From contig CM030335.1 in the NCBI GenBank assembly GCA_017654855.1, positions 186,001 to 250,000 on the forward strand: a stretch of 64,000 bases of DNA. The letters are read 5' to 3'. The notes under the pieces are model-generated. The model had not been told where the DNA came from. It was given only the letters and a program-made list of their open reading frames with translations, and made no database searches. The DNA comes from Podospora anserina (taxonomy: Eukaryota). Below are positions 18,797 through 45,290 of this stretch, one piece after another. Made by a program: the position numbers and the translations under genes. Position 1 is the stretch's first letter. The number at the start of each line of letters is the position of its first letter.

Positions 18797-20578
18797 ACGT
18801 ACATTATAAGCGAGTCGCGCACTAGCCATTGCGACGCGTTCTCTCTACACTTAACATCATTTTTCTCCACAACCCAACATGCCACCTACTTTAAAAGAAG
18901 CGAGGGTAATCTTAGCCCTCGAAGCTCTTCAGAATGATGAGCGTTTAAGCGTCAGAGCAGCAGCGAGGCTCTATAATATTCCAGAATTAACGCTCCGTAA
19001 CCGACGCGCTGGCCGGCCTACACGACGCGATACTACGCCCAAATCGAAGAAGCTCACTTAATCCGAAGAGGATATTATTGTTTAATATATTATTAAGCTA
19101 TATGCGCGAGCTTTTCTACTAAAATTACGTAGTGTAAAGATATAGCTAATTAATTACTACGTATACGCGACGTGCCCCTTATTAGTAAGCTTTAAGTATA
19201 TAACTTGGTTAAACGTTAACTATAGTTCCGTACGTATTTCACGTATAGATATAACTATTAAAGGGCTAAGTATAAAGATCTAAAGGTTATAGCCAAATAA
19301 TTCTCGTTTATATAAAACACTAAGGCTAAGTATAGTATTATAAATAATAATATTTATAAATTCGACGAATCTAAGTTTATAATAAATATTATTTTTATAA
19401 GTATAGTAATTACGACTTCGGACGGTTATAATAAAGTAAAATTAATTTAAAGAGTTAATACTTTCGGCTAAGCTATTCCCTTTTTTATTACTTTAATTAT
19501 AATACTATTTTGTTAATTAATATACTAAATATAATTTATTATTTACTTAATGTGTTATAATTATTAATAATAATAAAATTAAGTATTTCGATTATTATAT
19601 AACGTTCTATATAAAAGGTAAATATTAACTATTAATCCTCGAAGGTTACGAAAGTAATTATTTAACTAAATTTAAACGTTACTATTAATAGAATAATATT
19701 ATTATACTTTATATACTTTTATACTTCTTTTACTTCCTTTAGCTATTTGATATTAATTGCTTTGGGCCGTTAAAATAAACGTACGGTCGCTAGATCGAGG
19801 ACTTCATATATAGATATATTAATTATATAAGTAAGCTCGAGTTCCTCTATACTTTCCGCGAAGCCTTCTTTGCCTCTATAATAGAGAAAAATATATAGGG
19901 TAGCTTTACGGGTACTAGCCTTATACCGTACGATTTAAAGAAGGTACTTTTTAAGCTAGATATAAAGCTTCGTACGTTAATACCTTTAAATTTACGGCCC
20001 GGCACTATATAACTTTAGGTCTCCTAGATACTATATAACCCTCGAGAAAATAACTTATAGTTAATGCTTTTTAAGATTCGCATTACTAACTATTAAAATA
20101 GTTTCCTGACTTTAATATTAGCTGCGGTAGACCAGCTTATTAAAGGTATAACGGCTAGAATGCACTAGGTGGCTTTCCTTTGTATAGAGGTCTCTTTGCT
20201 CCGTAAGGCTAATGAGGCACTAAGTAAGCGCCGGAGAGCCAAAAAAACACGTGTGAGGCTTGGAAGGTAACTTACTGTACAAGAGGCACAGGATCTACTG
20301 GATCAGAAGGCCGTGGATAAGGAGGGAGTGTAAGAAACGTAGCCGGATAGTAGTAATGTAGGGGGGGCTCGTACGAAGGTTCAGTGCTGTGGTGTATGCG
20401 GTAAGCCTGGCTATAATGCGCGTATTTGCTAGGAGGCTGTAGAAGCATCTGATTCAGCTGTTTCTGATGTAATTATAGTTAATTCCTTGTCTTGATGTGG
20501 TGTAATTGAGGATAGTATTCGTAGGGTGGTAGAGAGTGCGCGACTCGCTTATATGCGCGACTCGCTTATAATGTACGT
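18797..20578 (+). mobile_element. Fot1/pogo-family (Tc1/mariner superfamily) DNA transposon, near full length, RIP-inactivated
   Basis: 25-bp TIRs ACGTACATTATAAGCGAGTCGCGCA flanked by TA on both sides (18795-96, 20579-80). Transposase start MPPTLKEARVILALEALQ...AARLYNIPELTLRNRRAGR at 18879; C-terminal CGVCGKPG(H)NAR(T)C knuckle at ~20388-20430; TpA-rich core with many TAA/TAG stops. Confidence 0.95.
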
Positions 20579-33161: not shown

Positions 33162-34406
33162 ATGTCGGACCGCTTCTTCCTCACGCGGCTCCCCCGTGAG
33201 ATCCGTGATCTCATCTACCACAAGTACCTCTTTTGCCGACCAGGGCTATGTGTTCGACTCGGGGGCAGGCAAGCTGAGGCTGAAGCACTCTGGTGAGCCC
33301 ATCAATCTGGCCCTCTCGTACCCAAGCAGGATGGTTGCCGCCGAGATGCGAGGCCTGGCTCTGCGCATCAACACGGTCGCCTTCTCGACCATGACCTCGC
33401 CGGCCCTGAGCCAAGAGCTGGGCGCTTCGAATTTATTCTCCACCACATCCATTTTTCAGGAGCAGGTGCTGCTCTACAAGATAACCCGCCTGCCCGAATT
33501 CAGCCTGGATAAACTTGAGGCAAGCTGCCCCGGTGCAAGTCGTCTGTGGCCGTTTGTCTGATGGAATAAGCGAGAGCGTAAATGGTGAGTCTCCCCTGAG
33601 CTCGCCTATCCCCTGGGGCAACGTGTTGCTTGGAGCAGGCTACGGTAATGTGTGGTTTCCAACAGATAACTGGGTTTCTCTTTTCCAGTTCTCCCGCTTA
33701 GATCTCGCCCATCGTCCCGATCTCGTCGCTCAGGTGGCCCCATTATCTGATTGCGCACGCCTGAGCCCGAACTGGATCTCTGACGCCCTATCGTTCTGGC
33801 TAGCAGAAGCCCTGGTTCTCTGCGACGCCGGGATGTCCAGCAATGTTTACTCGTTGACATTGGTCGCTGGCCCGATGCGCGAAACAACCAGCCACATCTT
33901 TCACGACGTGGTGCACAGGGACGACGCCTGGCAGCGTGCCGCGCGAACCCAGTTCGGTCTTGAGTCCGACGACGGCGATTTGGCAGCCCTCTGCCGGGCG
34001 GGCCAGCACCCATCCATGCAATCTCTAAACAGAATCACTCAGATTTACAAGTACGCCGGCTTCACAGAAGCTCTCGCTGCGCTAGCTTCCCGTACCTCTT
34101 CTCGGGGTGGCCGCTTTGGCGGCAACTTCGATGCCGGCACGCCCTGGAGCGCCGCAGAAGTCGACGCTCTTGTCGAGAAACACAGCAAACTCGATGTCGA
34201 TGAGTGGGTAGAAACGTATTTTGACAGGGCAGATCACCCCATGTTTGTTGACCCCGAAAAATGGGTACCAAACGGTCCCGCCGTACCCCAAGTTCTTTGA
34301 TCACTTTTTACAAAATGTCGTGGTCGATCGAGCCCTGCTTTATCGTGTGTGTATCGACAACAATCCGTACGTACCAGACGCGAACTGGGAAGACGACGAC
34401 GACTGA
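33162..34406 (+). pseudogene. Frameshifted fungal hypothetical gene with F-box-like N-terminus (LPREIRD)
   Basis: MSDRFFLTRLPREIRDLIYHKYLF continues in another frame (ADQGYVFD...AAEMRGLALRINTVAFST). Further frame changes occur near 33550 and 34290. Confidence 0.6.
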
Positions 34407-35115
34407 TGTTGGCGGTGAGTGTGTATAACACGGAGGATTAGGTGGATGGGTACATTGGTGTAACTTGCCTACCTTACCTTAGGTAGATAAAATTTACCAG
34501 CATGTGTTGCCGTGTGGTGAACACCCAGACTCTCATTTTGAGAGAAATCCAATGCTGTTTCTGGAAGACATACTGCCAAAATCGGAGGAAGATTTCTTCT
34601 TCATTTCTACATTCACAACCCTAAATCTTCCAATGAACCTGAAGTATAAGGCCGATAGAAAATAAAAATCCAAAATTAAATAAGCTGTAGAAAATATAGG
34701 TATTTTGGTATATCGAGCTTGTATTCTTCAGCTTTTTAGCGGAATAACAACTTGTTATATATTTAGATATTTATATTTCAATTTTTAAACCGAGATTAAG
34801 ATTATATAATTATAAGAAATGCGTTTTACTAAAGATTTAACTAAATAACTAACGTATATTATAAGCAAGTGACCCACTTCCTTCGTAATATAACACCTTC
34901 GCACTCAACAGCAATTTCCTTAACTATTTAAGATACTTTCTAATTCAAATAAAGCCCACATAATTTTAGCCCTCCAAGCGCTTCAAAACGACAAGAATCT
35001 AATGTCACAGTTAACCTAACGGCAAGTCGCGCTATATGTAGGGCGCAGGTCGCCCCTAGCTAATTATTAAGGAAGCTAGGGAATAAGCTAATTAGGCCTA
35101 AATAAAAGTGCTATG

Positions 35116-35484
35116 TGTGACGAACCCCTGTATAGAACCTCTGAAAGGGATACTAATTAAAGGTAACTTTTAATAATTAGTTCGGTATAACTAAATAGTA
35201 TATAATAAAATATCTTAATGTAAATACTAAATACTGTAAATATAAACTTAAATTATATACTACGGAACTATCTATTTATATTAGCTAGTTCTTTCGTATA
35301 TATAAACCGGTTTATTACTATTATTACTAGTAATAATATTAATTATTACTTGTCGCTTATTAAGGCTAGTAATAATCGTAATTATTACTTTTAGCGCTAA
35401 TAATAATTTAGCTTTCTTACTTTTCCGTACTAGTAGTTAAACGGTTCGCGCCCCGTATTCTCCGCTTATATTAGGACCGTAATA
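35116..35484 (-). repeat. 3' LTR (type B)
   Basis: Direct repeat of 41513-41881; adjacent to the polypurine tract. Confidence 0.93.
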
Positions 35485-35597
35485 TAATATCCTTCCTCTA
35501 GGTTAACGTCTTATTAGCCTAGTCTCGTCGACTATATACGTTTTTCCTTCTTTTTTTATAAACCTCTCTCTAATTATATAATGGCCTAACTAACGTT

Positions 35598-36286
35598 ATA
35601 TCTATAGTAAAACCTCTATCGTCGTTTATATAATATTGTATTAAACTCGCTTAAAATATTATTAAAAACGGTTTCCTCGTTATACTTTACTCGTAGTATA
35701 ATTCGTAGGGGTTATCTTACCGTATAATGGATAAAGTAAAGCGTTATAAGGCTTATATATATCGTAAGCGTTTATATAATAGTACCGGTATCCCTATCTC
35801 CTCGCGTAAGTCTCCCGTTACCTTTCTTTTCTTCTTACTAATCTCTTTTTAGTAAATAAGATTATACAAGAGTAACGTCGTTTTTAGGAGGAAGAGAAGC
35901 GGGCCGAAACTCTTTTAATCGAATACTAATAGAAAGCTTTTAAGGCTTTAACTCGTCTATCGCGAGTCCGTTATTAACGTAAATTTCTTATAAATAAGGG
36001 AGCTATTATAGTCGCCCGCAGCTTCTTTTCTCTCGATAAATTAGAAACTACCGAACGTATCGAATAGGAGGAAGCTACGTAAGCCGCGCCGGCTATACCG
36101 TTATTTAACAACGTTCCTTCCTCTAATTATATTCCCTTAAATCCTTCCGACTTTTCCTTTCTAGATCCTTCCTTAAGCTTCGACTAGCCGCCTAACCTTT
36201 CCTTAAACCCGGGCGTAGCCGGTCCTTCCTTCCTGACCCCGCAAAGTGCCGCCGAGGGCGCGCTTTCTACTTTTTAAGGTAATTAA
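35598..36286 (+). pseudogene. RIP-inactivated antisense accessory ORF of the retrotransposon: Zn(II)2Cys6-spaced motif plus coiled coil, with one intron
   Basis: TAC/TAT codons at 35688-35777 spaced x2-x6-x8-x2-x6 (TGY->TAY by RIP). Intron 35806-35852 (GTAAGT...TACTAAT...TAG) preserves the frame. All in-frame stops are TAA/TAG. The start codon is uncertain. Confidence 0.7.
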
Positions 36287-36328
36287 AACGCGTAGTACTA
36301 CTTATACTTAAGTCTTTCCATACCTTTT

Positions 36329-36398
36329 AACCTCGTAGTGTAGTGCGTAGTACGTCGGCTACCGCGTTAAAGGTATAGGTTCGATTCCCGTCGAGGTT
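36329..36398 (+). ncRNA. tRNA-like cloverleaf, copy 1 (inside the retrotransposon, antisense to pol)
   Basis: 7-bp acceptor stem AACCTCG/CGAGGTT; A-box-like TAGTGTAGTGCG; B-box GGTTCGATTCC; non-canonical 6-nt anticodon loop. Confidence 0.7.
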
Positions 36399-36527
36399 CT
36401 TCCGTATCTAAGTTTATAGATACCCCTCCGTAGCTTAGGTATAGATCTTTTTAGCTATATCTTTAACTTTTTTTACGGTAGTGGAGGCGTATAGTATTAG
36501 TTAGGCCTAGATTTCTTTATACTTACT

Positions 36528-36597
36528 AACCTCGTAGTATAGTACGTAGTACGTCGACTACTATATTAAAGGCGTAGGTTCGATTCCTACTAAGGTT
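36528..36597 (+). ncRNA. tRNA-like cloverleaf, copy 2
   Basis: Copy 199 bp downstream of copy 1; perfect T-arm GTAGG-TTCGATT-CCTAC; followed by a T-run. Confidence 0.65.
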
Positions 36598-39500
36598 TTT
36601 TTATATTTAAGTTTATAAATACTTTTCTATAGTTTAAGTATAGATCTTTTTATTATTTAGGTTTTGGTCGGTTTAAGTATTATTAGTAAAATTCTTTTTA
36701 CTTATTTAAGTAGTTAAGATATACCTATAGTTCCTATAAGTTATTTATAATTAAATATTTTAATTAATTAATTAAATACTTTAATTAACCTTTATTAAGC
36801 TATAAATCTAATATTTCTTTTATATTATATTTTTCTTCTTCGTCCTCCGCTACTACTTATATATTAGCTTTATTTATATATAGTATAGGTTCCAAAAGTA
36901 AAATATAAAAAGTATATAACCGTAAACGTATTGTATTAAGTAACTCTAATTCGAATACCGTTTCTAAAATCTTTTTTTTAACTTTAAATAGGCCTACTTT
37001 TTTATAGTTTAGCTTCTTATTAAGTCTTTTAATACGTAAATTATATATAAAAAGGAATACTATATCCCCCCTTTTAAAACAAAGTCCTTCGAGCCTTTTA
37101 GTATTATAGTATTTTCGTATCCTTTCCTTTATAAACTCTAGCTCTTACTTTAGCTTACCGTAAAGTATATATAATTTATTTACTTTAATTCTAGCCTTAA
37201 GTACCTTAACCGTAGGTCCTTACTGTCGGTTTACTTTATAGCCGAAATTCGCGAAGAAAGGTATAACTTTCGTGGTTTTTATTAATAATATATTATATAT
37301 TAATTATACTGTAAATAATAATTTAATTTAATTATCCTACTCGAAATTAATATAATTTCGTAAGTATTATTCTATAATTTAATTAAGCCGTTCCGTTTAA
37401 CCGTCCGTTTAAGGGTAATAAACTAAAGATACTTTATTTATTACTTTTAGTTTAGTTATTAACGCTCTTTATAACTTCGATACGAATTTAGTATTACGGT
37501 CCGTAATAAATTTTTTTAACTATATATATATTAATATAATATACTATAATACTATATTCGCTAATTACTTTACCGATTAAGTTTTTTTATAAAGTAAAAA
37601 ATATATTTATTTAATAAGCCTATCGATTACTATTAATATATTATCGTATTTAACGCTAATTACCGTATCTTTTAATTTTAATAATTTAATAATAAAGTCT
37701 ATTATAATTAAATTTTATAATTATTTTACTATTAATAATAGCTTTAGAAATCTATATAGTTTATACCTCGTAACCCTCGTTTTCTCGTACGTATAGTATA
37801 ACTAAATAACTTCCTTAACGTCGTCCTTAATCTTTAGTTAATTAAAATACTACTTAATCTTTTTTATAGTTTTAGCGATACCTATATATCCTTTAAACTT
37901 CGATCCGTAAATCTCTATTACTAATATCGTCCTATTACCTAGCATTACGTACGCTCGATTTTTATACTATAGTCTTCCCTAACTATCTTTTTAGATACCT
38001 TATAGCTCTAACTTTTCCTATTAATATTACTCCGTAATATTATTACTTAACCTTCCTTAATATTTACTGCTAGAAGTAACTTACTTATAATATATTATAT
38101 AATACTTTATTTACGGCTAAAGTAAATATTTAAGAGTGCCTTTTAGTATTTCCTCGAGTAATAATAGTAATTCCCTAAATATATCTTTATAATAATTAAA
38201 TCGCCGGCTAAATACGTCTACCTTAACGTTTTTTAATCCCTTTTTATAATTAATTTAAAAATTAAATTTTAAAAGAAACTTTAATTATTATATTTATTAT
38301 ACGTTAAGGACTTTTATAATAGTAAAATATTATAGGTTTTTATAATTTATATAAACCTATACTTTATAATTAATATTATTAAAATATAACCTCTATTCTT
38401 CGAACGCTTTAATAATAGCGAATAGCTCTTTATTATAGATTAAGTAGTTTTAACGTATCTCTTTTAGCTTCTTCGAAAAGAAAGTTACTAGGTATAGCTT
38501 CCCGTTATTATTTCGCTATCCTAATTATTTACCGATCGTATAGTTTAATATATCCGCCTCGACCTTAAATAATTAATTAAAGTTTAGTAATTTAAATACT
38601 AGGTCCTTTAAAATAGCTTTTTTTAGCTTTTAAAAAGCCTACTCCTTTTTCTACCCCTACCGGAACTCTACGTCCTTCTTAATTAAGTAATTAAGTAATT
38701 ACGCGATTCTTATATATTTATAAATAAATATCCGATAGAAGTTCGTAAATCCTAAAAATTCCTTAACGTATATTTATAATTACGGCGTAAGCTAATTTTT
38801 AATTACCGTAATTTTCCCCGGTTTTATACGAACCTTACTTAACGATATTAAATATTTTAAATATATTATTTTTTATACGTAAAACTCACTTTTTTTTTTA
38901 TTAATTAAAAGTCTAGCTCCATATAGCGCGTTAAATATTTTTCGTACGTATCGCTTATACTTTTCTAAAGTACGTAAGTAAATAAAAACGTTATTAAAGT
39001 AGTATATTATTATTTTATCGAGGTACTTCCGGATCGTATAATTAACAAGAGATTAAAACGTTATAAGTATATTAATTAGCTTAAATAATATTATAAGATA
39101 CTCGAAATAACTATAGGGTATACGAAACGTTATTTTTTATTTATTTCTTTCTTTAATCCGTATATAGGTATATCCGATAAATATATTTAAATATATAAAG
39201 TATTATACCCCTATTAATTAATTCCGTAACTTAGATATTAACGGTAGCGGGTAATTATTTTTTACCGTTACGTTATTTAATTAGCGGTAATTTATATATA
39301 ATCGTAAGCTATTGTTTTTTTTCGGTATAAAGAATACGGGGTATCTTACTAGCGATATAGACTCCTTAATATATTTTCTTTTTAGATTTTCGTTTAAGTA
39401 CTTCCGTAGCTCCTTACTCTACTTATCGTTAGTATAATAGACTTTAAATAGCCGTAATTTAGCTTTCTCTTTTAATTTAATTTTATAGTCCTACGGTCCT

Positions 39501-41512
39501 CGCTCTAAAAGTCCTTTTAAATACTTAGCCGTAAAGGCTAAATATCCTCGATATTCTATTAGTACCGCTTTTTTCTTACCTTTCTTTACGTTATTATAGT
39601 AAGTATACTTATTAACCTCCAATATCTCTACTAACGTTATTAACCCTACTTCTTCGATTTTACCGCTTATATCGATAAAGTATACTATTACTTTTTAAAC
39701 TCCTTACGGTAATACCGTAAAAGGTACTTATCCTATACTTTACTCTATATATATACCTAATTTCCTATCGTTAATTAAATACTTTTAAAGCTCTTTTAAT
39801 CGTAAATAACTATTATCCCTCTAATCGATATTTAGGTTATAGTCTTTATATTATAGTTACCTTAAAATTATATCCTTCGAAGGTTTTATATTTATAATAT
39901 CGAATATAATTAAAATTATTTTTCCTTTAATTATAATAATTAAAAATAATATTTCTCTATAGACTCTTTACGTCGGAAATAGTCCTTATATAACGATTTA
40001 TTCCTTCTTTTTTCTCTATAGTATTTTAGTTTAATATATAAACTATAGCGAAATTAGGTTCGTTTCTATACCTCCGTTTACTAATATTACTGTTTAAATA
40101 TTCTTTTAATATATTATAACCTAAAGGCGTTTATTTTTTTTATTTTTTCCTTATATAATAGCGACCTCGCTAATAAGTACCGGATTATTATCCTATACCT
40201 TCGCTTTATATTAATATTTACGAAAATACTATTCGTGGTTCGTTAAAGGTTACCGGCCCTCGCGAAGGGCTGTAAATCGTTTCTTAAGCGATTATATTGT
40301 TTAAAAGCGTCCTCTTACTCCGGATTAATTAATAATATAAAGTTTTTTAACTATACTTACTTAGCTTCTTCTTATCTTCCGTCTTTTACTTCCTTAATAC
40401 TCTTTCGTATTTATATTTAGTAACGGTTCTTCGCTTTATTTAATTAGTATTTAATAGCTACGACCTCTACTACTTTTGGTCCCTTTAATATAATAATTAT
40501 TGCGATTTCCCTTTTTTAACCGAGTTACTTAAATACTTTATAATCCTTTTTAAAGTATTTTACTTTACTATAATTAAAATACTTAAGGTTATTTCTACCT
40601 TAGCCCCGGCCTTACGGCTTTTACTATTAGATAGTATCGACCTCTATAGGTCCTACGTAGGTAGTCCCTAAAACGTAAGTCCCGTACGGCCGTCTCTTTT
40701 TATTATTATTAAAGTAATAAAGTCTTTATATATATATATTTTTATATTCCTTACGTCATTAATATTATTAATCGTCGATATAGATTATTATTATAATATA
40801 TTTATCGATAGTTTCTAGCCGCTTTATTTAATATAGTTTATCCTTAACTTCTTCCTTAAACTTATTATAAAACACTTATATTAACCTTTTATCGTTAATC
40901 GCGTTACGGAATATATTTATTTTAAATACTATAGCGTAATCGGTAGTAAATCGAGTTTATTTAAAGTTAGCTAGTCGCTTTTAAATACACTTACTTTTAT
41001 TATACTCTTTAAATACTTCCTTAATTTTCTTTTTAAAACTTTTATAAAACTTAAAATATATTTAAGTAATATCCTCCCTCTAATTAAGCGTATTATTAAA
41101 GTAATTTCTTAAAATTGGTTCGAATTACGTAAATGCCGTATCTTTAAGCCTAGACGCGGCGTATATAACTTTAGATTCCTCGTTTAAGAAACGAAAAGGG
41201 TAGTACCGAAAATAAACTTTAAGTTAAATTAAGAATCCTCCTAGCTCTCCTTTTATACTTCTATAGTAATTAGGTACTTCGAGCTTCGTACGCTTTCCCT
41301 CTTTACGTAAAGTATTAATTTTTTAATAGAGTATAGCGTTTCTTACGTAAAGGTATTATAGGAAAGGCGTAACTTATTTTTAAGCTTTTAAATACAAGCG
41401 AGAAGCTAATTAATAGTAGGTTGGGTCGGGATTCCCTAAGTATTAATGTTTCCGGCTATAGCGTTTTAATACTTTTAATTTATTTATAATAAGTTAAAGT
41501 AAGTATATAACG

Positions 41513-41881
41513 TGTAACGAACTCCTATATAGAACCTCTAAAAGGGATACTAATTAAAGGTAACTTTTAATAATTAGTTCGGTGTAGCTAAATAATATAT
41601 AATAAGATGTCTTAATGCAAATACTAAATACCGTAAATGCAGGCTTGAATTGCATACTGCGGAACTATCTATTTACACTAGCCAGTTCCTCCGTATATAT
41701 AGACCGGTTTATCACTATTATCACCAGTGATAATATTGATTATCACTCGTCGCTTACTAAGGCTGGTGATAATCGTGATTATTACCCTTGGCGCTAGTGA
41801 TAATCCAGCTTCCCCACCTTTCCGTGCCAGTGGTTAGACGGTTCGCGCCCCGCATTCCCCGCTTATATCAGGACCGTGACA
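41513..41881 (-). repeat. 5' LTR (type B)
   Basis: Direct repeat of 35116-35484 and less RIP-mutated; TATA and shared R/U5 half at 41513-41703. Confidence 0.93.
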
Positions 41882-43245
41882 CTATGGCGCCAAAGCTCAC
41901 GAGCAGTCTGCAGGATGCAAGATGCTAAGGGTGATCAGAGGCATAGCACGACGAGCACGTTGCAGGATGCAATGTGCTAGGAGTGATCGGGGCCATAGCA
42001 GGGCGAGCACCTCACGGCCCCAGGATCTATATATACGGAGGAACTGGCTGGTGTAGATAGACAGTTCCGCAGTATGCAATTCAAGCTTGTATTTACGGTA
42101 TCTAGTGTTTACATTGAGACATCTTGTTGTGCACTGTTTAGCTGCACCGAACCAATTGTCAGAAGTTACCTTCAACCAGTATCCCTTTCAGAGGTTCTGT
42201 ACAGGGGTTCGTCACATCTAAACGAACGAACCGCAGCCAAAATCTATAGAATCGATCGTAAGACTCTAGGGCGTTAGCGCGCTGGCCGGCCTATACGACG
42301 CGATACTATACCTATATCGAAGAAGCTTACTTAATCCGAAAAAGATACTATTATTAAATACGTTATTAAGCTATATACGTAAGCTTTTTTACTAAGATTA
42401 CGTAATATAAAAGAAATAGCTAACCAACTACTACGCGTATACAACGCGCTCTCTATTAGTAAGCTCTAAGCATATCACTTCGTTAAACGCTAATTATAAC
42501 TCCGTATACGTTTTACATATAAATACGACTATTAAAAAGCTAAATATAAAAATTTAAAGGTTATTACCGAATAATTTACGTCTATACGGAATATTAAAGT
42601 TAAATATAATATTATAAATAATAATATTTATAACTTCGACGAAACTAAATTTATAATAAATATTATTTTCGCAGGTATAGTAATTATAACCTCAGACGGC
42701 CTTAAAAAAGTAAAACTAATCTAGTTTAGTAACTATAAATAAGCACCTATAATTCAAGGAATCAATACCCTCAGCTAAACTATCCCTCCCTTTATTATTT
42801 TAGCCCCGTAGTACTACTTACTAACTAATATACCGAATATAACTTCCTAGCCGACTAGCGTATTTCAATTACCGATAATAGTTAAACTATTAATACGGTA
42901 AGCTTAAATTAAATTAAGTACTTCGATTACTACACGGCGTCCCGTATAAAACGTAAATACCGGTTGTTAATCCTCGACGGCTACGAAAGCTACTACTTAA
43001 CCGAATTCAAGCGTTACTATTAATAAAATAATAATATTACGCTCTATATACTTCTATATTTTTTTTTTACTTTTAGCTACCTGGTATCAGCTACTTTGGG
43101 CCGCTAAAGTAGGCGTAGAGTTATTAAATCAAGGACTTAATATATATATATGTTAACTATATAAGTACGCTCGAATTCCTCTATACCTTCCGTAAAACTT
43201 TATTTACCTCTATAATAAAAAAAGATATATAGGGTAGCTTTATAG

Positions 43246-43526
43246 TAGTTTGGGGTGCGGCCACAGGCTTGAGAGTATGAGTAAGGAAGCGGGGCTCTCG
43301 GAGGACTCAGGAGTTCAGGGGTCATGTATATAAGCAGTCTGCTTTGGACATTCTATTTTAGACAGGACATCGACTTTTATTTCTTTATATTTTGTGCTTT
43401 GCACGCGTGCAGTCAATTCTGGCCCTCTGATCAGGCCAATCCGGTGCTTATTATGTGGCCTGCGAGCCCATAGTGTCTTTTCTTTGTCCTGCGTGAAGTG
43501 CGGCCTGCGAGCGAGTCACTGTCACA
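43246..43526 (+). mobile_element. Probable 5'-truncated LTR of a different family abutting the truncated transposon
   Basis: Abrupt switch to non-RIP composition at the truncation point; TATATAA box (~43327); internal GGCCTGCGAGC repeat; ends in TGTCACA. No TG start or TSD found. Confidence 0.5.
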
Positions 43527-45290
43527 ATGTTAGTTTATATGATGATTCAACTAGGCCTTTACCTTGATTTGCAAATTAGGTATTCGAACTTAACTTAGTT
43601 GATTTGGACATTTGAAAATTAAATTTTTCTTGAGAGGGGGTAGGGTGGAAGAGGCAATTCCACTCCTAACTACACACCCCACTCAAGTCCAAAAGCGGCA
43701 ATACATTTCCCTTGACTGGAAGAACATTTGATTCGCCAGACAGTATATTAGCACCCCCCCCTTTCTTCCTCTGTCTTAGTGTTGGCCATGTATCAAATGG
43801 CTCCTCTCGATCCGGCAGTTGCACGTGAGAACGCTTGGTCGACGAAATGGCGGAAATCTTGTCTCTTCAGGCTAAAAGAAGGACTGGCTACCGATCCACT
43901 TTGGAACCCGAGACCCAGGTTTCCCGTGCGTCTTGTTACGTCGATCTGCATCGTTAGCGATATGTTTAATACCGGGGATTGACCTCTTCACGTCTCGACT
44001 TTTTGTTCTTGCCTTTTCACTTTTCTCTTCTTCCCCAAACAACAAAGGGGCTCTCGGCCGAAATGGCGCCAGATATTGCCATGAACCTTGCTCCCCACCC
44101 CCTCTCGAGGCGTTATCTTGAGCAACACGATTCTCTGTCCAGGCGGTTCAGCAGTTTCCTAACTGGGAAGGTGACTTTTGTACGTTCCAGAGGGAACAAC
44201 AACAGGACGAGCAACCGCTTCTCTCCCCAGACCGGATTCTCCCATTTTGACAGCTTGGCAGGATTCAGATGTGCGTTGGATCCTTTTACCGTTGTTTCTC
44301 AATATCTTCCTCCTCAAGGAAGTACTACTTTCTGTTCTTGTTCCCCCCGTGTAACGATCCCACCCGTCCTTTTGCTGTGGCTCCTACCCATGATGTCTTC
44401 CCAACTGCCGTCAGCGAATGGCGCTGCCACACCCGCGCGGCACTCTGCACCGCACGCACACGGGGCAGCCCTGGCACAGCGGCTCATTCCCGGCCGGACA
44501 ATATTGGGCCCACACATGGTCCAAAATTCCCGATCGATGGCTGTTCCCGGAGTTCATCTCTTGGCTTTGACGGGAGCATAATGTCAGCATTATCAAGCTC
44601 GGAAACCTTCCCCAAGTATTCTCTCGTGAGATGTATTTTTCTCCCCTTTGGTTCGCTGTCTGGGATCAGATTACATGCCAAGTTTGGAAGACCAGCAATG
44701 GCGGTCGAGGGATATCATGTGTCTTGATATCATCTTTTGGTTGCTGCGCCATCCTACCAGACAATCACAATGGTACCCTACAAGCAACTCCCTTGACAGC
44801 TTGCACCACGAATTGTCAGTATCACGCCAGCGCAAGAAAAGAACGACGTTGACACCTGCTCGCTAGACTAGCTCCCGTCTTGGGTAGGTCGTAAGGCGGT
44901 TTTGATCTTGGCCACCCTCTTCTCATTTACATGGCACCCGCATTCAGCATCGTGTCAAAGTTCTAAGCATGGCCTTGTTCCTACCCTACCCAGGTTGATA
45001 TAGGAAAAAGATGGTGGAGAAGGTCTGACATCTTGTTCGCGATGCCCTTTGCGGAAGGTGGTGATGATTTGGGGACCAATATGTCAACGCCATCACGGGT
45101 AACCTCCCTCTTTCTACCTATTCCCAGCCACCAGTCCACAAGCTGATGTTGTCTAAGACAGAGATAAATAGACATGCTCATCTCGCTGTTGTTTTTCTGT
45201 TGCAAGATCACCATCATCACTTTCTGTCTCTCTCTCTCTGTCCTCGTCCTCCTCACTTGTCTACTCCCGAGTTTAACAACAGACTTCAAC

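Follow-up and report, generated by a model that had tools for sequence, protein, structure and literature searches.

The question raised by this locus is what occupies the DNA between the end of pol and the polypurine tract of a Ty3 retrotransposon located in the 64-kb stretch that was analysed as a whole (hereafter, the window). The initial annotation had described about 1.2 kb there as something other than filler, and this held: the gap measures ~1.17 kb, and its plus strand carries a two-exon ORF and two tandem tRNA-like units. We consider it probable that the locus represents a complete, RIP-killed, Boty-like Ty3 chromovirus with an antisense gene of the BRTN family, in which the twin tRNA-like units are a passenger acquired later, within a sublineage.

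The host element and its state

The element is a complete Ty3/chromovirus on the minus strand, spanning window positions 35116-41881 (6766 bp), with gag-pol present and heavily mutated by RIP (Table 1). A repeat search of the window returned two direct repeats (35115-35414 and 41512-41811; 86% alike), whose alignment delimited a pair of LTRs of 369 bp each with ends of the TG..CA type. In four runs, contigs join position 35110 to 41882, which corresponds to the unoccupied form of the flanking repeat. The gag-pol relic follows a single frame of the minus strand, with a chromodomain-like end that stops at ~36650-36655. Translated with X at stop codons, pol still matches the Pfam families RVT_1 (31.5 bits), RT_RNaseH_2 (61 bits), RT_RNaseH, and SH3_Tf2-1; the RVT_1, RNase H and SH3 domains were recognised by Pfam, and the chromodomain of the window by alignment only. 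The RIP indices of the 3' LTR are 1.64 (TA/AT) and 0.17 ((CA+TG)/(AC+GT)), while the gag-pol region has a GC content of 0.25 and a RIP index of 0.06. Every part of the window copy has been inactivated by RIP.

Table 1. Coordinates of the features of the chromovirus and its antisense cassette in the window
Feature	Position	Strand	Basis
Target-site duplication CTATG, left copy	35111-35115		Identical 5 bases at 41882-41886, just outside the LTRs
3' LTR, 369 bp, mutated by RIP	35116-35484	-	85-86% identity to 41513-41881
Polypurine tract, minus-strand letters AGAGGAAGGA	35490-35499	-	Read from sequence; 5-nt spacing to the 3' LTR
Exon 1 of the brtn homologue, coding for the basic N-terminus and the relic of a Zn2Cys6-type cluster	35598-35805	+	X-at-stop translation, family alignment, tblastn
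Spliceosomal intron, 47 nt, phase 1, GTAAGT ... TACTAAT ... AG	35806-35852	+	Sequence; intron position of relatives
Exon 2 of the brtn homologue, coding for the coiled-coil region and the C-terminal tail; stop codon 36275-36277	35853-36277	+	Translation, phmmer, BLASTP
Tandem unit 1, 199 bp: ~65-nt leader, tRNA-like 36329-36399, hairpin ~36404-36446, T5 36448-36452	36262-36460	+	Repeat alignment, Rfam, fold
Tandem unit 2: leader, tRNA-like 36528-36598, weaker hairpin, T5 36647-36651; adjoins pol end	36461-36665	+	Repeat alignment, Rfam, ARAGORN
gag-pol, RIP-broken (protease, RT, RNase H, integrase, SH3, chromodomain relic), and PBS region	36656-41512	-	Frame-0 translation, Pfam
Relic of the ancestral overlap of brtn C-terminus and pol tail	36664-36726		Alignment to L006
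5' LTR	41513-41881	-	Repeat match to the 3' LTR
Target-site duplication CTATG, right copy	41882-41886		Contigs join 35110 to 41882

The antisense gene and its relatives

The ORF (35598-36277, plus strand) lies between the edge of the 3' LTR at 35484 and the end of pol at ~36655 on the opposite strand. As the initial annotation had proposed, it contains an intron and the spacing of a Zn(II)2Cys6 cluster: the exons, the 47-nt intron and the pattern CX2CX6CX8CX2CX6C were all found, and the six Cys columns of the family are all Tyr in the window, an expected change since RIP turns TGY to TAY. The start had been set at the ATG at 35727, which proved to be internal; alignment to relatives places it at 35598, where ATA now stands for a former ATG. 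Exon 1 is supported by tblastn with residues 18-72 of protein P0008, and is colinear with the protein of metagenome locus L006 from the Met of the latter. Once joined across the intron, the exons align to relatives without gaps. The window copy has lost its start and all six Cys, now Tyr, and is interrupted by 12 premature TAA/TAG stops; exon 1 holds 4 of them, downstream of the start, and exon 2 the other 8. It is a pseudogene of the BRTN family.

A phmmer search with exon 2 recovered 26 relatives at E<=1e-3, the best being 60% identical (E 2.5e-24), and a profile search recovered 69 proteins at E<=1e-3 among the 8000 scored. Matches of the profile include a Botrytis protein named 'Putative BRTN' by UniRef (E 2.3e-23), SS1G_06438 of Sclerotinia, and proteins of Verticillium, Corynascus, Canariomyces, Apiospora and Pseudogymnoascus; Xylaria is among the cluster members, and the nearest named relatives of the window gene are Sordariomycetes. 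Aligned by hhalign to 'Putative BRTN', the family profile A5 gave a probability of 99.6% (E 1.1e-23, 147 columns), and BLASTP of the window exon 2 against the same protein (P0076) gave an E value of 7e-5, the name being that assigned by UniRef and the comparison being made to the UniRef entry, not to the published brtn sequence. 'Putative BRTN' is homologous in sequence and equal in size and architecture. By homology, the antisense gene belongs to the BRTN family and is a homologue of the brtn gene of Boty.

The latter is an extra gene, in antisense orientation, reported from the Boty-like Ty3 retrotransposons of Botrytis cinerea and of Sclerotinia (Zhao et al. 2011, Virology 417:248; as cited in PMC8365987, PMC7264820, PMC4227169 and PMC5987419), and the citing passages place it antisense, between pol and the 3' LTR. 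The window gene shares this situation, on the opposite strand of a chromodomain-bearing Ty3 element, but its host belongs to another ascomycete lineage and the copy is destroyed by RIP. The system had initially been taken as undescribed, which the homology of its ORF to a gene described in 2011 contradicts. BRTN appears to have been known previously from Zhao et al. 2011 and a few citations.

We identified 16 metagenome loci encoding a brtn relative. A chromovirus pol C-terminus was also matched at 12 of these, and in 10 of the 12 the 3' ends of the two genes, on opposite strands, meet or overlap (in L006, for example, the pol stop lies at 950-952 and the brtn stop at 1075-1077). The Pfam domains present in the pols of the relatives are RVT_1, RNase H, integrase (rve), SH3_Tf2-1 and Chromo. 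An intact spliced ORF and a dN/dS below 1 had been named as tests of the initial proposal, and both were encountered in the relatives: (i) of 13 loci tested, 8 have a clean spliced brtn ORF, and that of a further locus runs off the contig end, (ii) introns of 49-56 nt occur at the matching protein position in 9 related loci, and (iii) dN/dS lies between 0.14 and 0.34 in 23 of 28 brtn pairs, the remaining 5 being dS-saturated, although these figures are rough, as every dS is high (at least 0.89). Because the relatives are intact, carry an intron at the same place, converge with pol and show such dN/dS values, brtn is a maintained accessory gene, kept under purifying selection in the relatives. 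The intron would have survived because the gene is antisense to the reverse-transcribed genomic RNA, an argument already advanced in the initial annotation and one that fits the conserved intron of the relatives.

Predicted properties of BRTN

BRTN proteins comprise about 170-235 residues, and the members read range from 166 to 235 aa. The N-terminus is basic, and the protein further contains six clustered cysteines in Zn2Cys6 spacing, a long coiled coil and an acidic stretch in which a DW is conserved; the ...SGG...SQGS of the C-terminal end is conserved as well. In intact relatives, the last ~20-65 brtn codons (about 50-190 nt) lie opposite the post-chromodomain tail of pol. Full-length members show the spacing CX2CX6CX5-12CX2CX6-8C of the Zn(II)2Cys6 domain (PF00172), and Zn_clus is the sole Pfam family recurring among them; matches at E<=0.1 came from 3 of 11 and from 5 of 10 members, none reaching 21 bits, with a best score of 19.5 bits (E 0.0011) against the gathering cut-off of 21. 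None of the solved Zn2Cys6 structures matches BRTN by sequence. The AlphaFold model has a mean pLDDT of 75 (65-84 in the cluster region); Foldseek ranks the Leu3 DNA-binding domain first, but only at E ~1, and the matches of a wide Foldseek search were mostly coiled coils. BRTN resembles the Gal4/Leu3-type Zn(II)2Cys6 factors (PF00172) in having CX2CX6CX8-9CX2CX6C followed by a linker and a coiled coil, and differs from them in that all its scores fall below thresholds, in lacking the middle homology region, in its size of ~200 residues, and in being borne by an element.

It is from the cysteine spacing alone that we infer DNA binding by BRTN; together, the cysteine pattern and the coiled coil point to a dimeric DNA-binding factor. 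We propose that brtn would be transcribed from a promoter of its own, in or beside the 3' LTR, and that BRTN may be a small dimeric zinc-cluster DNA-binding factor regulating the transcription or the chromatin of its own element, possibly a fungal counterpart of the antisense-encoded retroviral regulators. HBZ of HTLV-1 is a spliced antisense gene beside the 3' LTR, whose product is a small coiled-coil DNA-binding regulator of the bZIP type. The likeness to brtn, a spliced antisense retroelement gene near the 3' LTR, would by analogy extend to the working mode of BRTN, but HBZ is a bZIP and not a zinc-cluster protein, belongs to a human retrovirus, and has no homology to BRTN.

What is new here, as judged from sequence comparison, is that BRTN is a broad family distributed across Leotiomycete and Sordariomycete chromoviruses and soil metagenomes, maintained intact and under purifying selection, with a conserved antisense intron and a C-terminus encoded opposite the post-chromodomain tail of pol. 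These data offer concrete hypotheses on a regulator encoded by fungal retrotransposons, also in plant pathogens whose elements produce small RNAs.

The tandem tRNA-like units

Two tRNA-shaped units with Pol III boxes had been noticed downstream of the ORF, and both were recovered. In a comparison with the Rfam tRNA family RF00005, whose threshold is 29 bits, the tRNA-like part at 36528-36598 scores 35.6 bits and that at 36329-36399 scores 29.5 bits. These are the only Rfam matches in the whole 64 kb; the LTRs of the chromovirus gave no Rfam match. Both units hold an exact B box, GGTTCGATTCC, and an A-box-like sequence, TAGTGTAGTGC, can also be read by comparison with the A-box consensus. ARAGORN calls one of the two (36528-36598), placing its 'anticodon' at position 27. 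The units form a 199-bp tandem repeat of two copies, 84% alike, and their similarity therefore makes them one event seen twice and not two independent matches. The acceptor stem pairs at 7/7 positions (6/7 in unit 2 of the pair), the D stem at 4/4, and the T arm at 4/5 and 5/5, whereas the anticodon stem pairs at 4/5 and 3/5 as it stands, attaining 5/5 only when RIP changes are allowed, and the anticodon loop has 6 nt, versus 7 in a complete cloverleaf. A T5 run follows ~50 nt downstream of the tRNA-like part. The hairpin of unit 1 folds with a z of -2.7 (2/200 shuffles fold as well) and that of unit 2 with a z of -1.1; folds of the whole units are no better than shuffles (z -0.5 and -0.9). 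By score and fold, the units are tRNA-derived sequences and not working tRNA genes.

The combination of ORF and tRNA-like units, sought in related elements, did not recur. ARAGORN found a tRNA-like match at none of the 16 related metagenome loci, and no tRNA match at E<=1 was obtained in 56,173 bases. Moreover, at the 10 loci showing the junction, brtn and pol abut or overlap, with no space for a tRNA-like unit. The proposal of a maintained module thus stands for brtn, with its intact spliced relatives and low dN/dS, and is not supported for the tRNA mimics. Positions 1015-1208 of L006 align to window 36664-36857 with one 1-nt gap on each side and a score of 133.5, as compared with 34 +/- 5 (maximum 53) for 200 shuffles. 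Homology to L006 resumes at 36664, directly past unit 2, which sets the right-hand breakpoint of the extra DNA at ~36660; the L006 counterpart of the overlap relic is coding on both strands, with the 21 C-terminal residues of BRTN opposite the pol tail. The borders of the tRNA-derived insert showed neither a target-site duplication nor another mark of arrival.

Within the species, the cassette is not a one-off, in keeping with the initial annotation. Besides the contigs of the locus itself, several other contig forms touch it, one being 80% identical over 36143-36453, and contig joints touch it at 35678>36142, 36180>36265, 36357>36888 and 36563>36653. The cassette has a summed depth of about 5-12x single-copy against about 40-110x for pol (roughly a tenth), contig depth not being equivalent to copy number, and the depth over the tRNA-like units does not exceed that over brtn. 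The tRNA-like units are present in only a few copies in this species.

Origin and role of the units

We propose that a tRNA-derived piece, either a tRNA gene with its flanks or a SINE-like unit, would have entered at the brtn/pol overlap, the overlap region now flanking the insert on both sides, and would then have been duplicated in tandem and carried in a few copies of the family in this species. The insert is most likely a passenger without a role in the life cycle of the element, because the units are absent from relatives and low in copy number. Persistence in several copies, an orientation matching that of brtn, and the layout of tRNA, hairpin and T-run also fit a function, and run counter to the passenger reading.

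That the units are working Pol III modules kept by a subfamily, each with a tRNA-like promoter or processing handle followed by a hairpin and a T-run, is unlikely in our view. Such modules might yield small RNAs after RNase Z cleavage, form TFIIIC-bound barriers, or provide an RNase P/Z 3' end for the brtn transcript, which would stop antisense transcription from running into pol. Both units exceed the Rfam tRNA threshold despite RIP, with an exact B box in each and the acceptor, D and T arms kept; they lie directly after the brtn stop in the orientation of brtn, and parts of them occur in several other copies in the species. The hairpin and T5 of unit 1 are likewise laid out in unit 2, where, however, the hairpin is no better than shuffles; nor are the whole-unit folds of both. 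Where the two hairpin arms show matched changes, these are RIP-type changes on each strand, and therefore give no sign of selection. Further objections are the six-nucleotide anticodon loop, the imperfect stem, the low cassette depth, and the absence of units from all 16 related loci, where the overlapping brtn and pol function in their absence. We accord little likelihood to a subfamily of an autonomous fungal chromovirus having acquired and spread working internal Pol III units directly behind an antisense regulator gene. If true, this would be the first autonomous LTR element known with internal Pol III modules and BRTN would be part of a two-polymerase accessory cassette, whose Pol III units might give rise to small RNAs, set a TFIIIC boundary, or free the brtn transcript before it becomes antisense to pol.

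It is quite doubtful that the pair is a small mobile element in its own right, nested within the chromovirus, either as a duplicated tRNA-derived SINE or as a Helenus-type TRIM. In favour of this, the pair does consist of two direct repeats, 183-199 bp in length, with a tRNA-like sequence in each, and both kinds of element have fungal precedents: a paper on A. fumigatus refers to tRNA-related SINEs in filamentous fungi, and Kojima 2024 (PMC10886601) to fungal TRIMs with tRNA-like LTRs, for which insertion of a SINE into an LTR is the proposed origin. However, the repeats are separated by at most 7-20 nt, too little for a PBS and a polypurine tract, and no convincing TG..CA ends or 5-bp duplication can be read at the borders. 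The repeat also takes in a leader of ~65 nt ahead of the tRNA-like part, which would be missing from a SINE made by Pol III, and the depth over the units, not above that over brtn, gives no sign of a dispersed SINE family of their own. In addition, the fungal Helenus elements treated in that paper come from Pucciniales and some Agaricomycetes, and are linked to Copia and not to Ty3 (PMC10886601).

Finally, chance likeness to tRNA in AT-rich, RIP-mutated DNA, with the ORF a chance open frame, is close to refuted and highly improbable. In its favour, RIPed DNA is low in complexity, the weaker unit scores only 0.5 bits over the threshold and the units, as copies of each other, count as one observation. 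Against it, the two Rfam matches are the only ones in a window that includes ~10 kb of DNA affected by RIP to the same degree, the B box and three of the arms have been preserved, and the ORF has 26 (phmmer) and 69 (profile search) relatives, colinear across the intron.

Comparison with other elements

As a probable passenger, the insert distinguishes the window lineage, in which a tRNA-derived tandem repeat of ~400 bp separates brtn from pol, from the readable BRTN relatives, in which the two overlap. It can be regarded as a small natural experiment indicating that the brtn/pol overlap can be separated. Its units resemble a tRNA-derived SINE in their tRNA-related head with an exact B box and an A-box-like sequence. 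Small-RNA-derived sequences are also a feature of the TRIMp3 elements, namely Cassandra (5S), Helenus (tRNA-like) and Ajax, where the tRNA-like sequence probably encodes no working tRNA either (Kojima 2024, PMC10886601). As presented there, these sequences are in sense orientation, within the LTRs of short non-autonomous elements, and are thought to drive the transcription of the latter; in contrast, the units of the window are internal (36329-36598), antisense and in tandem, within a 6.8-kb autonomous element whose LTRs are without such a sequence. The insert might be an intermediate toward LTR elements with Pol III promoters.

With regard to brtn, the plant Ty3 elements Grande, RIRE2, Retand and PvRetro13 are cited as having additional antisense ORFs between pol and the 3' LTR, which are conserved within families and similar to brtn in position and orientation (PMC7264820). 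They differ in their plant hosts and in their lineages, those named being mostly non-chromovirus, and the likeness drawn here is one of position and orientation.

The interiors of RIP-mutated retrotransposons can also give matches in tRNA scans, which calls for caution in genome annotation.

Structure and RIP of the chromovirus

The AT-rich island in the window extends over 10 kb (~34000-44000) at a GC content of 0.24-0.42, the surrounding DNA being 55% GC, and holds a single, complete Ty3 chromovirus 6766 bp long (Table). The RIP index (CA+TG)/(AC+GT) is 0.06-0.17 within the element, as compared with 1.2-1.3 in its flanks. Direct repeats lying 6397 bp apart align as 369-bp LTRs of 85-86% identity; the same five bases, CTATG, are found directly outside each LTR, and a purine run (PPT) occurs 5 nt inside the 3' LTR. 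Between the LTRs, gag-pol is read on the minus strand in a single frame interrupted by many stops, and is closed by a chromodomain-like stretch at ~36650-36655. When each stop is replaced by X, Pfam matches to RVT_1, the Tf2-type SH3 domain and two RNase H models remain. The RIPed pol gave no Pfam match to Chromo at E<=1e-3, and its chromodomain is visible only through alignment to relatives. The separation of the pol end from the PPT measured ~1.17 kb, and the frame of the element drawn by the initial annotation was correct.

Table. Features of the chromovirus, its cassette and neighbouring DNA (window coordinates).
Feature	Position	Location	Basis or description
Complete element	35116-41881	minus strand	
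LTRs	35116-35484 and 41513-41881	minus-strand element	direct-repeat alignment
Cysteine region of brtn	35640-35804	plus strand, in frame with exon 1	tblastn and read-through translation
brtn stop	36275-36277	plus strand	
tRNA-like units	36262-36665	exactly the gap from brtn stop to pol end	two tandem 199-bp units, 84% alike
Chromodomain of pol	36656-36860	minus strand	alignment to relatives
52-bp tandem repeat pair	41899-42002	directly outside the 5' LTR	79% alike
Inverted partial LTR, same family	42026-42216	close to the element's right end	85% identity to LTR positions 1-191
Second short AT-rich island	19001-20000	amid gene-dense DNA of 50-60% GC	GC 0.276

The antisense gene is a degraded brtn

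The antisense ORF proposed on the plus strand turned out to be real and longer than first thought, with a start at 35598 and colinearity with relatives. Because of RIP damage, a word-based protein search with the exon 2 peptide (P0001, with X at TAA/TAG) and a Pfam search with the window's own ORF peptides both came back blank; phmmer afterwards found relatives. The full HMMER scan of P0001, covering 1.84 billion representatives, returned 26 proteins at E<=1e-3, three of them at <=1e-10, and the closest protein (60% identity; E 2.5e-24) differs from the window mostly by RIP-type changes. Full-length relatives carry a CX2CX6CX8-9CX2CX6C motif upstream of the part matched by exon 2. In the family alignment all six of these Cys columns are Tyr in the window, the expected outcome of TGY to TAY changes by RIP. 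From its first Met onwards, the protein of L006, the closest of the metagenome loci, aligns colinearly with the window; that Met corresponds to ATA in the window, and removal of a 47-nt intron (GTAAGT, TACTAAT, AG) is required for a gap-free alignment. The copy in the window is a pseudogene, with a lost start codon, 12 premature stops and six altered Cys. In two runs guessed to be RNA, depth over the cassette (the antisense gene plus the tRNA-like units) is almost zero, with one 372-nt contig of 82% identity at 36143-36235.

Of 8000 candidates scored with the family profile, 69 proteins had E<=1e-3. These include a Botrytis cinerea protein named 'Putative BRTN' by UniRef (E 2.3e-23), Sclerotinia SS1G_06438, and hypothetical proteins of Verticillium, Corynascus, Canariomyces, Apiospora and Pseudogymnoascus; Xylaria hypothetical proteins are present among the cluster members. 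Compared directly with 'Putative BRTN', the profile gave a probability of 99.6% (E 1.1e-23, 147 columns), and the damaged exon 2 of the window alone reached E 7e-5. According to passages among PMC8365987, PMC7264820, PMC4227169 and PMC5987419, where brtn is credited to Zhao et al. (2011), Boty of Botrytis and Sclerotinia has antisense ORFs in the interval from pol to the 3' LTR, and a Monilinia transcript matches both truncated Pol and BRTN; maps of BcGypsy elements with brtn belong to PMC8365987. The cassette had been put forward as an undescribed system; on the strength of the profile match and these passages, its gene part has already been described, as brtn.

Maintenance of brtn in relatives

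Scanning JGI metagenome contigs with the 11-row family alignment (A5) yielded 16 loci encoding a relative. Twelve of them also match the chromovirus pol C-terminus, and the relatives' pols carry RVT_1, RNase H, integrase, SH3_Tf2-1 and Chromo. In ten loci (L001, L003, L004, L005, L006, L007, L009, L013, L015 and L016), brtn and pol converge from opposite strands, with their 3' ends touching or overlapping; pol lies at the opposite end of a permuted contig in L010 and L012, and the remaining four contigs (1.1-2.5 kb) show no pol. In L006, the stop codon of pol occupies 950-952 and that of brtn 1075-1077, so that ~125 nt code both tails, the conserved BRTN ...DPGSSGG... being coded opposite pol ...RNPDRP.... 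The former is a C-terminal motif and the latter a post-chromodomain motif, and in L006 (1015-1077), as in L001 and L007, both sit around a CCGG core. Such an overlap links the evolution of the BRTN and pol proteins.

Spliced gene models were sought in 13 loci, L012, L014 and L016 having matched exon 1 only. Eight yielded a clean two-exon ORF encoding 190-216 residues; its intron, 50-56 nt long, interrupts the protein at a shared position and has a CTGAC, CTAAC or CTAAT branch site. The L010 model runs off its contig and has a 49-nt intron, again at the same protein position; two models are doubtful (L009 and L015), and no model was obtained for L003 and L013. Retention of an antisense intron, as the initial annotation anticipated, is therefore borne out in the relatives. 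With L005 left out as identical to L004, and the region overlapping pol excluded, dN/dS was 0.14-0.34 in 23 of 28 pairs and dS was saturated in the other five; every dS was at least 0.89, hence these figures are rough. Frames kept intact across this divergence, together with the dN/dS values, show that the brtn family is under purifying selection.

L004 and L005 come from different metagenome records and represent the same element, with an identical BRTN protein and pol tblastn match. Several contigs of 6.7-7.5 kb (L007, L010) are circularly permuted single elements, running from the pol end through brtn and LTR to the gag-pol start. Together, the permuted contigs and the L004/L005 identity show that soil fungi harbour un-RIPed chromoviruses that bear brtn and were active recently.

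A tRNA-derived insert at the old brtn/pol overlap

A 71-nt stretch in each of the twin units scores above the Rfam tRNA threshold (35.6 and 29.5 bits), and this pair gives the only Rfam matches across the 64-kb window. Pairing is kept in the acceptor, D and T arms, and the B box matches exactly; the anticodon loop is of 6 nt, and a complete anticodon stem is obtained only by allowing for RIP changes. These units are of tRNA origin but are not tRNA genes. A hairpin lies 3' of the tRNA-like stretch (z -2.7 in unit 1; weak in unit 2, z -1.1), followed in both units by a T5 run.

A tRNA match was found in none of the 16 related loci, either by ARAGORN or by Rfam at E<=1, and the ten loci showing the brtn/pol junction have no space for a tRNA-like unit. 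Homology of L006 to the window resumes at 36664, just past unit 2 (score 133.5 versus 34 +/- 5 for shuffles), which, along with the brtn/pol overlap in relatives, indicates that extra DNA was inserted at the old overlap. A comparison for a duplicated overlap region within the window (36100-36330 versus 36600-36860) scored 47.5, within shuffles (38.8 +/- 5.3, max 60.5), as did L006 against 36100-36330 (39.5). These DNA comparisons show a relic of the overlap on the right-hand side only; on the left-hand side, the evidence for homology is the protein alignment.

The cassette is present in other copies of the species: a contig from another copy has 80% identity at 36143-36453, and four distinct joints touch the cassette. 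Summed depth in two DNA runs, which does not equal copy number, was ~5-12x single-copy over the cassette versus ~40-110x over pol. Accordingly, the insert is not a one-off and occurs in a minority of copies. As for the proposal of a maintained accessory module, it holds for the gene, which is intact and selected in relatives, and is not supported for the tRNA-like pair, which is a lineage-specific add-on and most likely a passenger. Every part of the window copy is dead.

Regarding the source of the units, derivation from the primer tRNA found no support: by eye, the PBS region bordering the 5' LTR does not resemble the complement of either unit at its 3' end. A Helenus-type TRIM or a free SINE is unlikely, the termini and duplications not being found at the units; no target-site duplication was detected around the insert, the repeats have no PBS or PPT between them, and depth over the units lacks the excess that would mark a free SINE. 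In the literature searched, no autonomous fungal LTR element was described as carrying tRNA-like or Pol III sequences internally. The nearest published likeness, in PMC10886601, is that of TRIMs with tRNA- or 5S-derived LTRs; there the small-RNA-derived sequence is in the LTRs, whereas in the window element the tRNA-like units are internal.

Possible role of BRTN

Zn_clus is the sole Pfam family recurring among BRTN members, always below the cut-off (best 19.5 versus 21 bits). The AlphaFold model of BRTN contains a 59-residue helix (residues 69-127, mostly pLDDT ~98); confidence in its cysteine region is moderate. Foldseek returned no structure at E<=0.001 for this model, the Leu3 DNA-binding domain ranking first at E about 1; relatives of solved structure found by sequence were coiled coils only, as were those from a wider structure search (Z<=6.2). 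We hypothesize that BRTN may be a DNA-binding factor, small and dimeric, that has a zinc cluster and an acidic tail and regulates the element, and that it would be expressed from an antisense promoter of its own close to the 3' LTR. The comparison behind this reading is HBZ of HTLV-1, to which an antisense gene of the element is likened, so that a regulatory role is suggested by analogy.

Flanking DNA and a second AT-rich island

Both flanks (34900-35115 and 41882-42100) are high-copy, and contigs joining 35110 to 41882 were found in all four sequencing runs examined; with the inverted partial LTR, this indicates that the chromovirus is nested in older repeat DNA. Part of this older DNA appears in runs guessed to be RNA. 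Over the 52-bp tandem repeat pair, contigs of two guessed-RNA runs go back by 51 nt, reflecting a different repeat number. The second short AT-rich island is probably another RIPed repeat.
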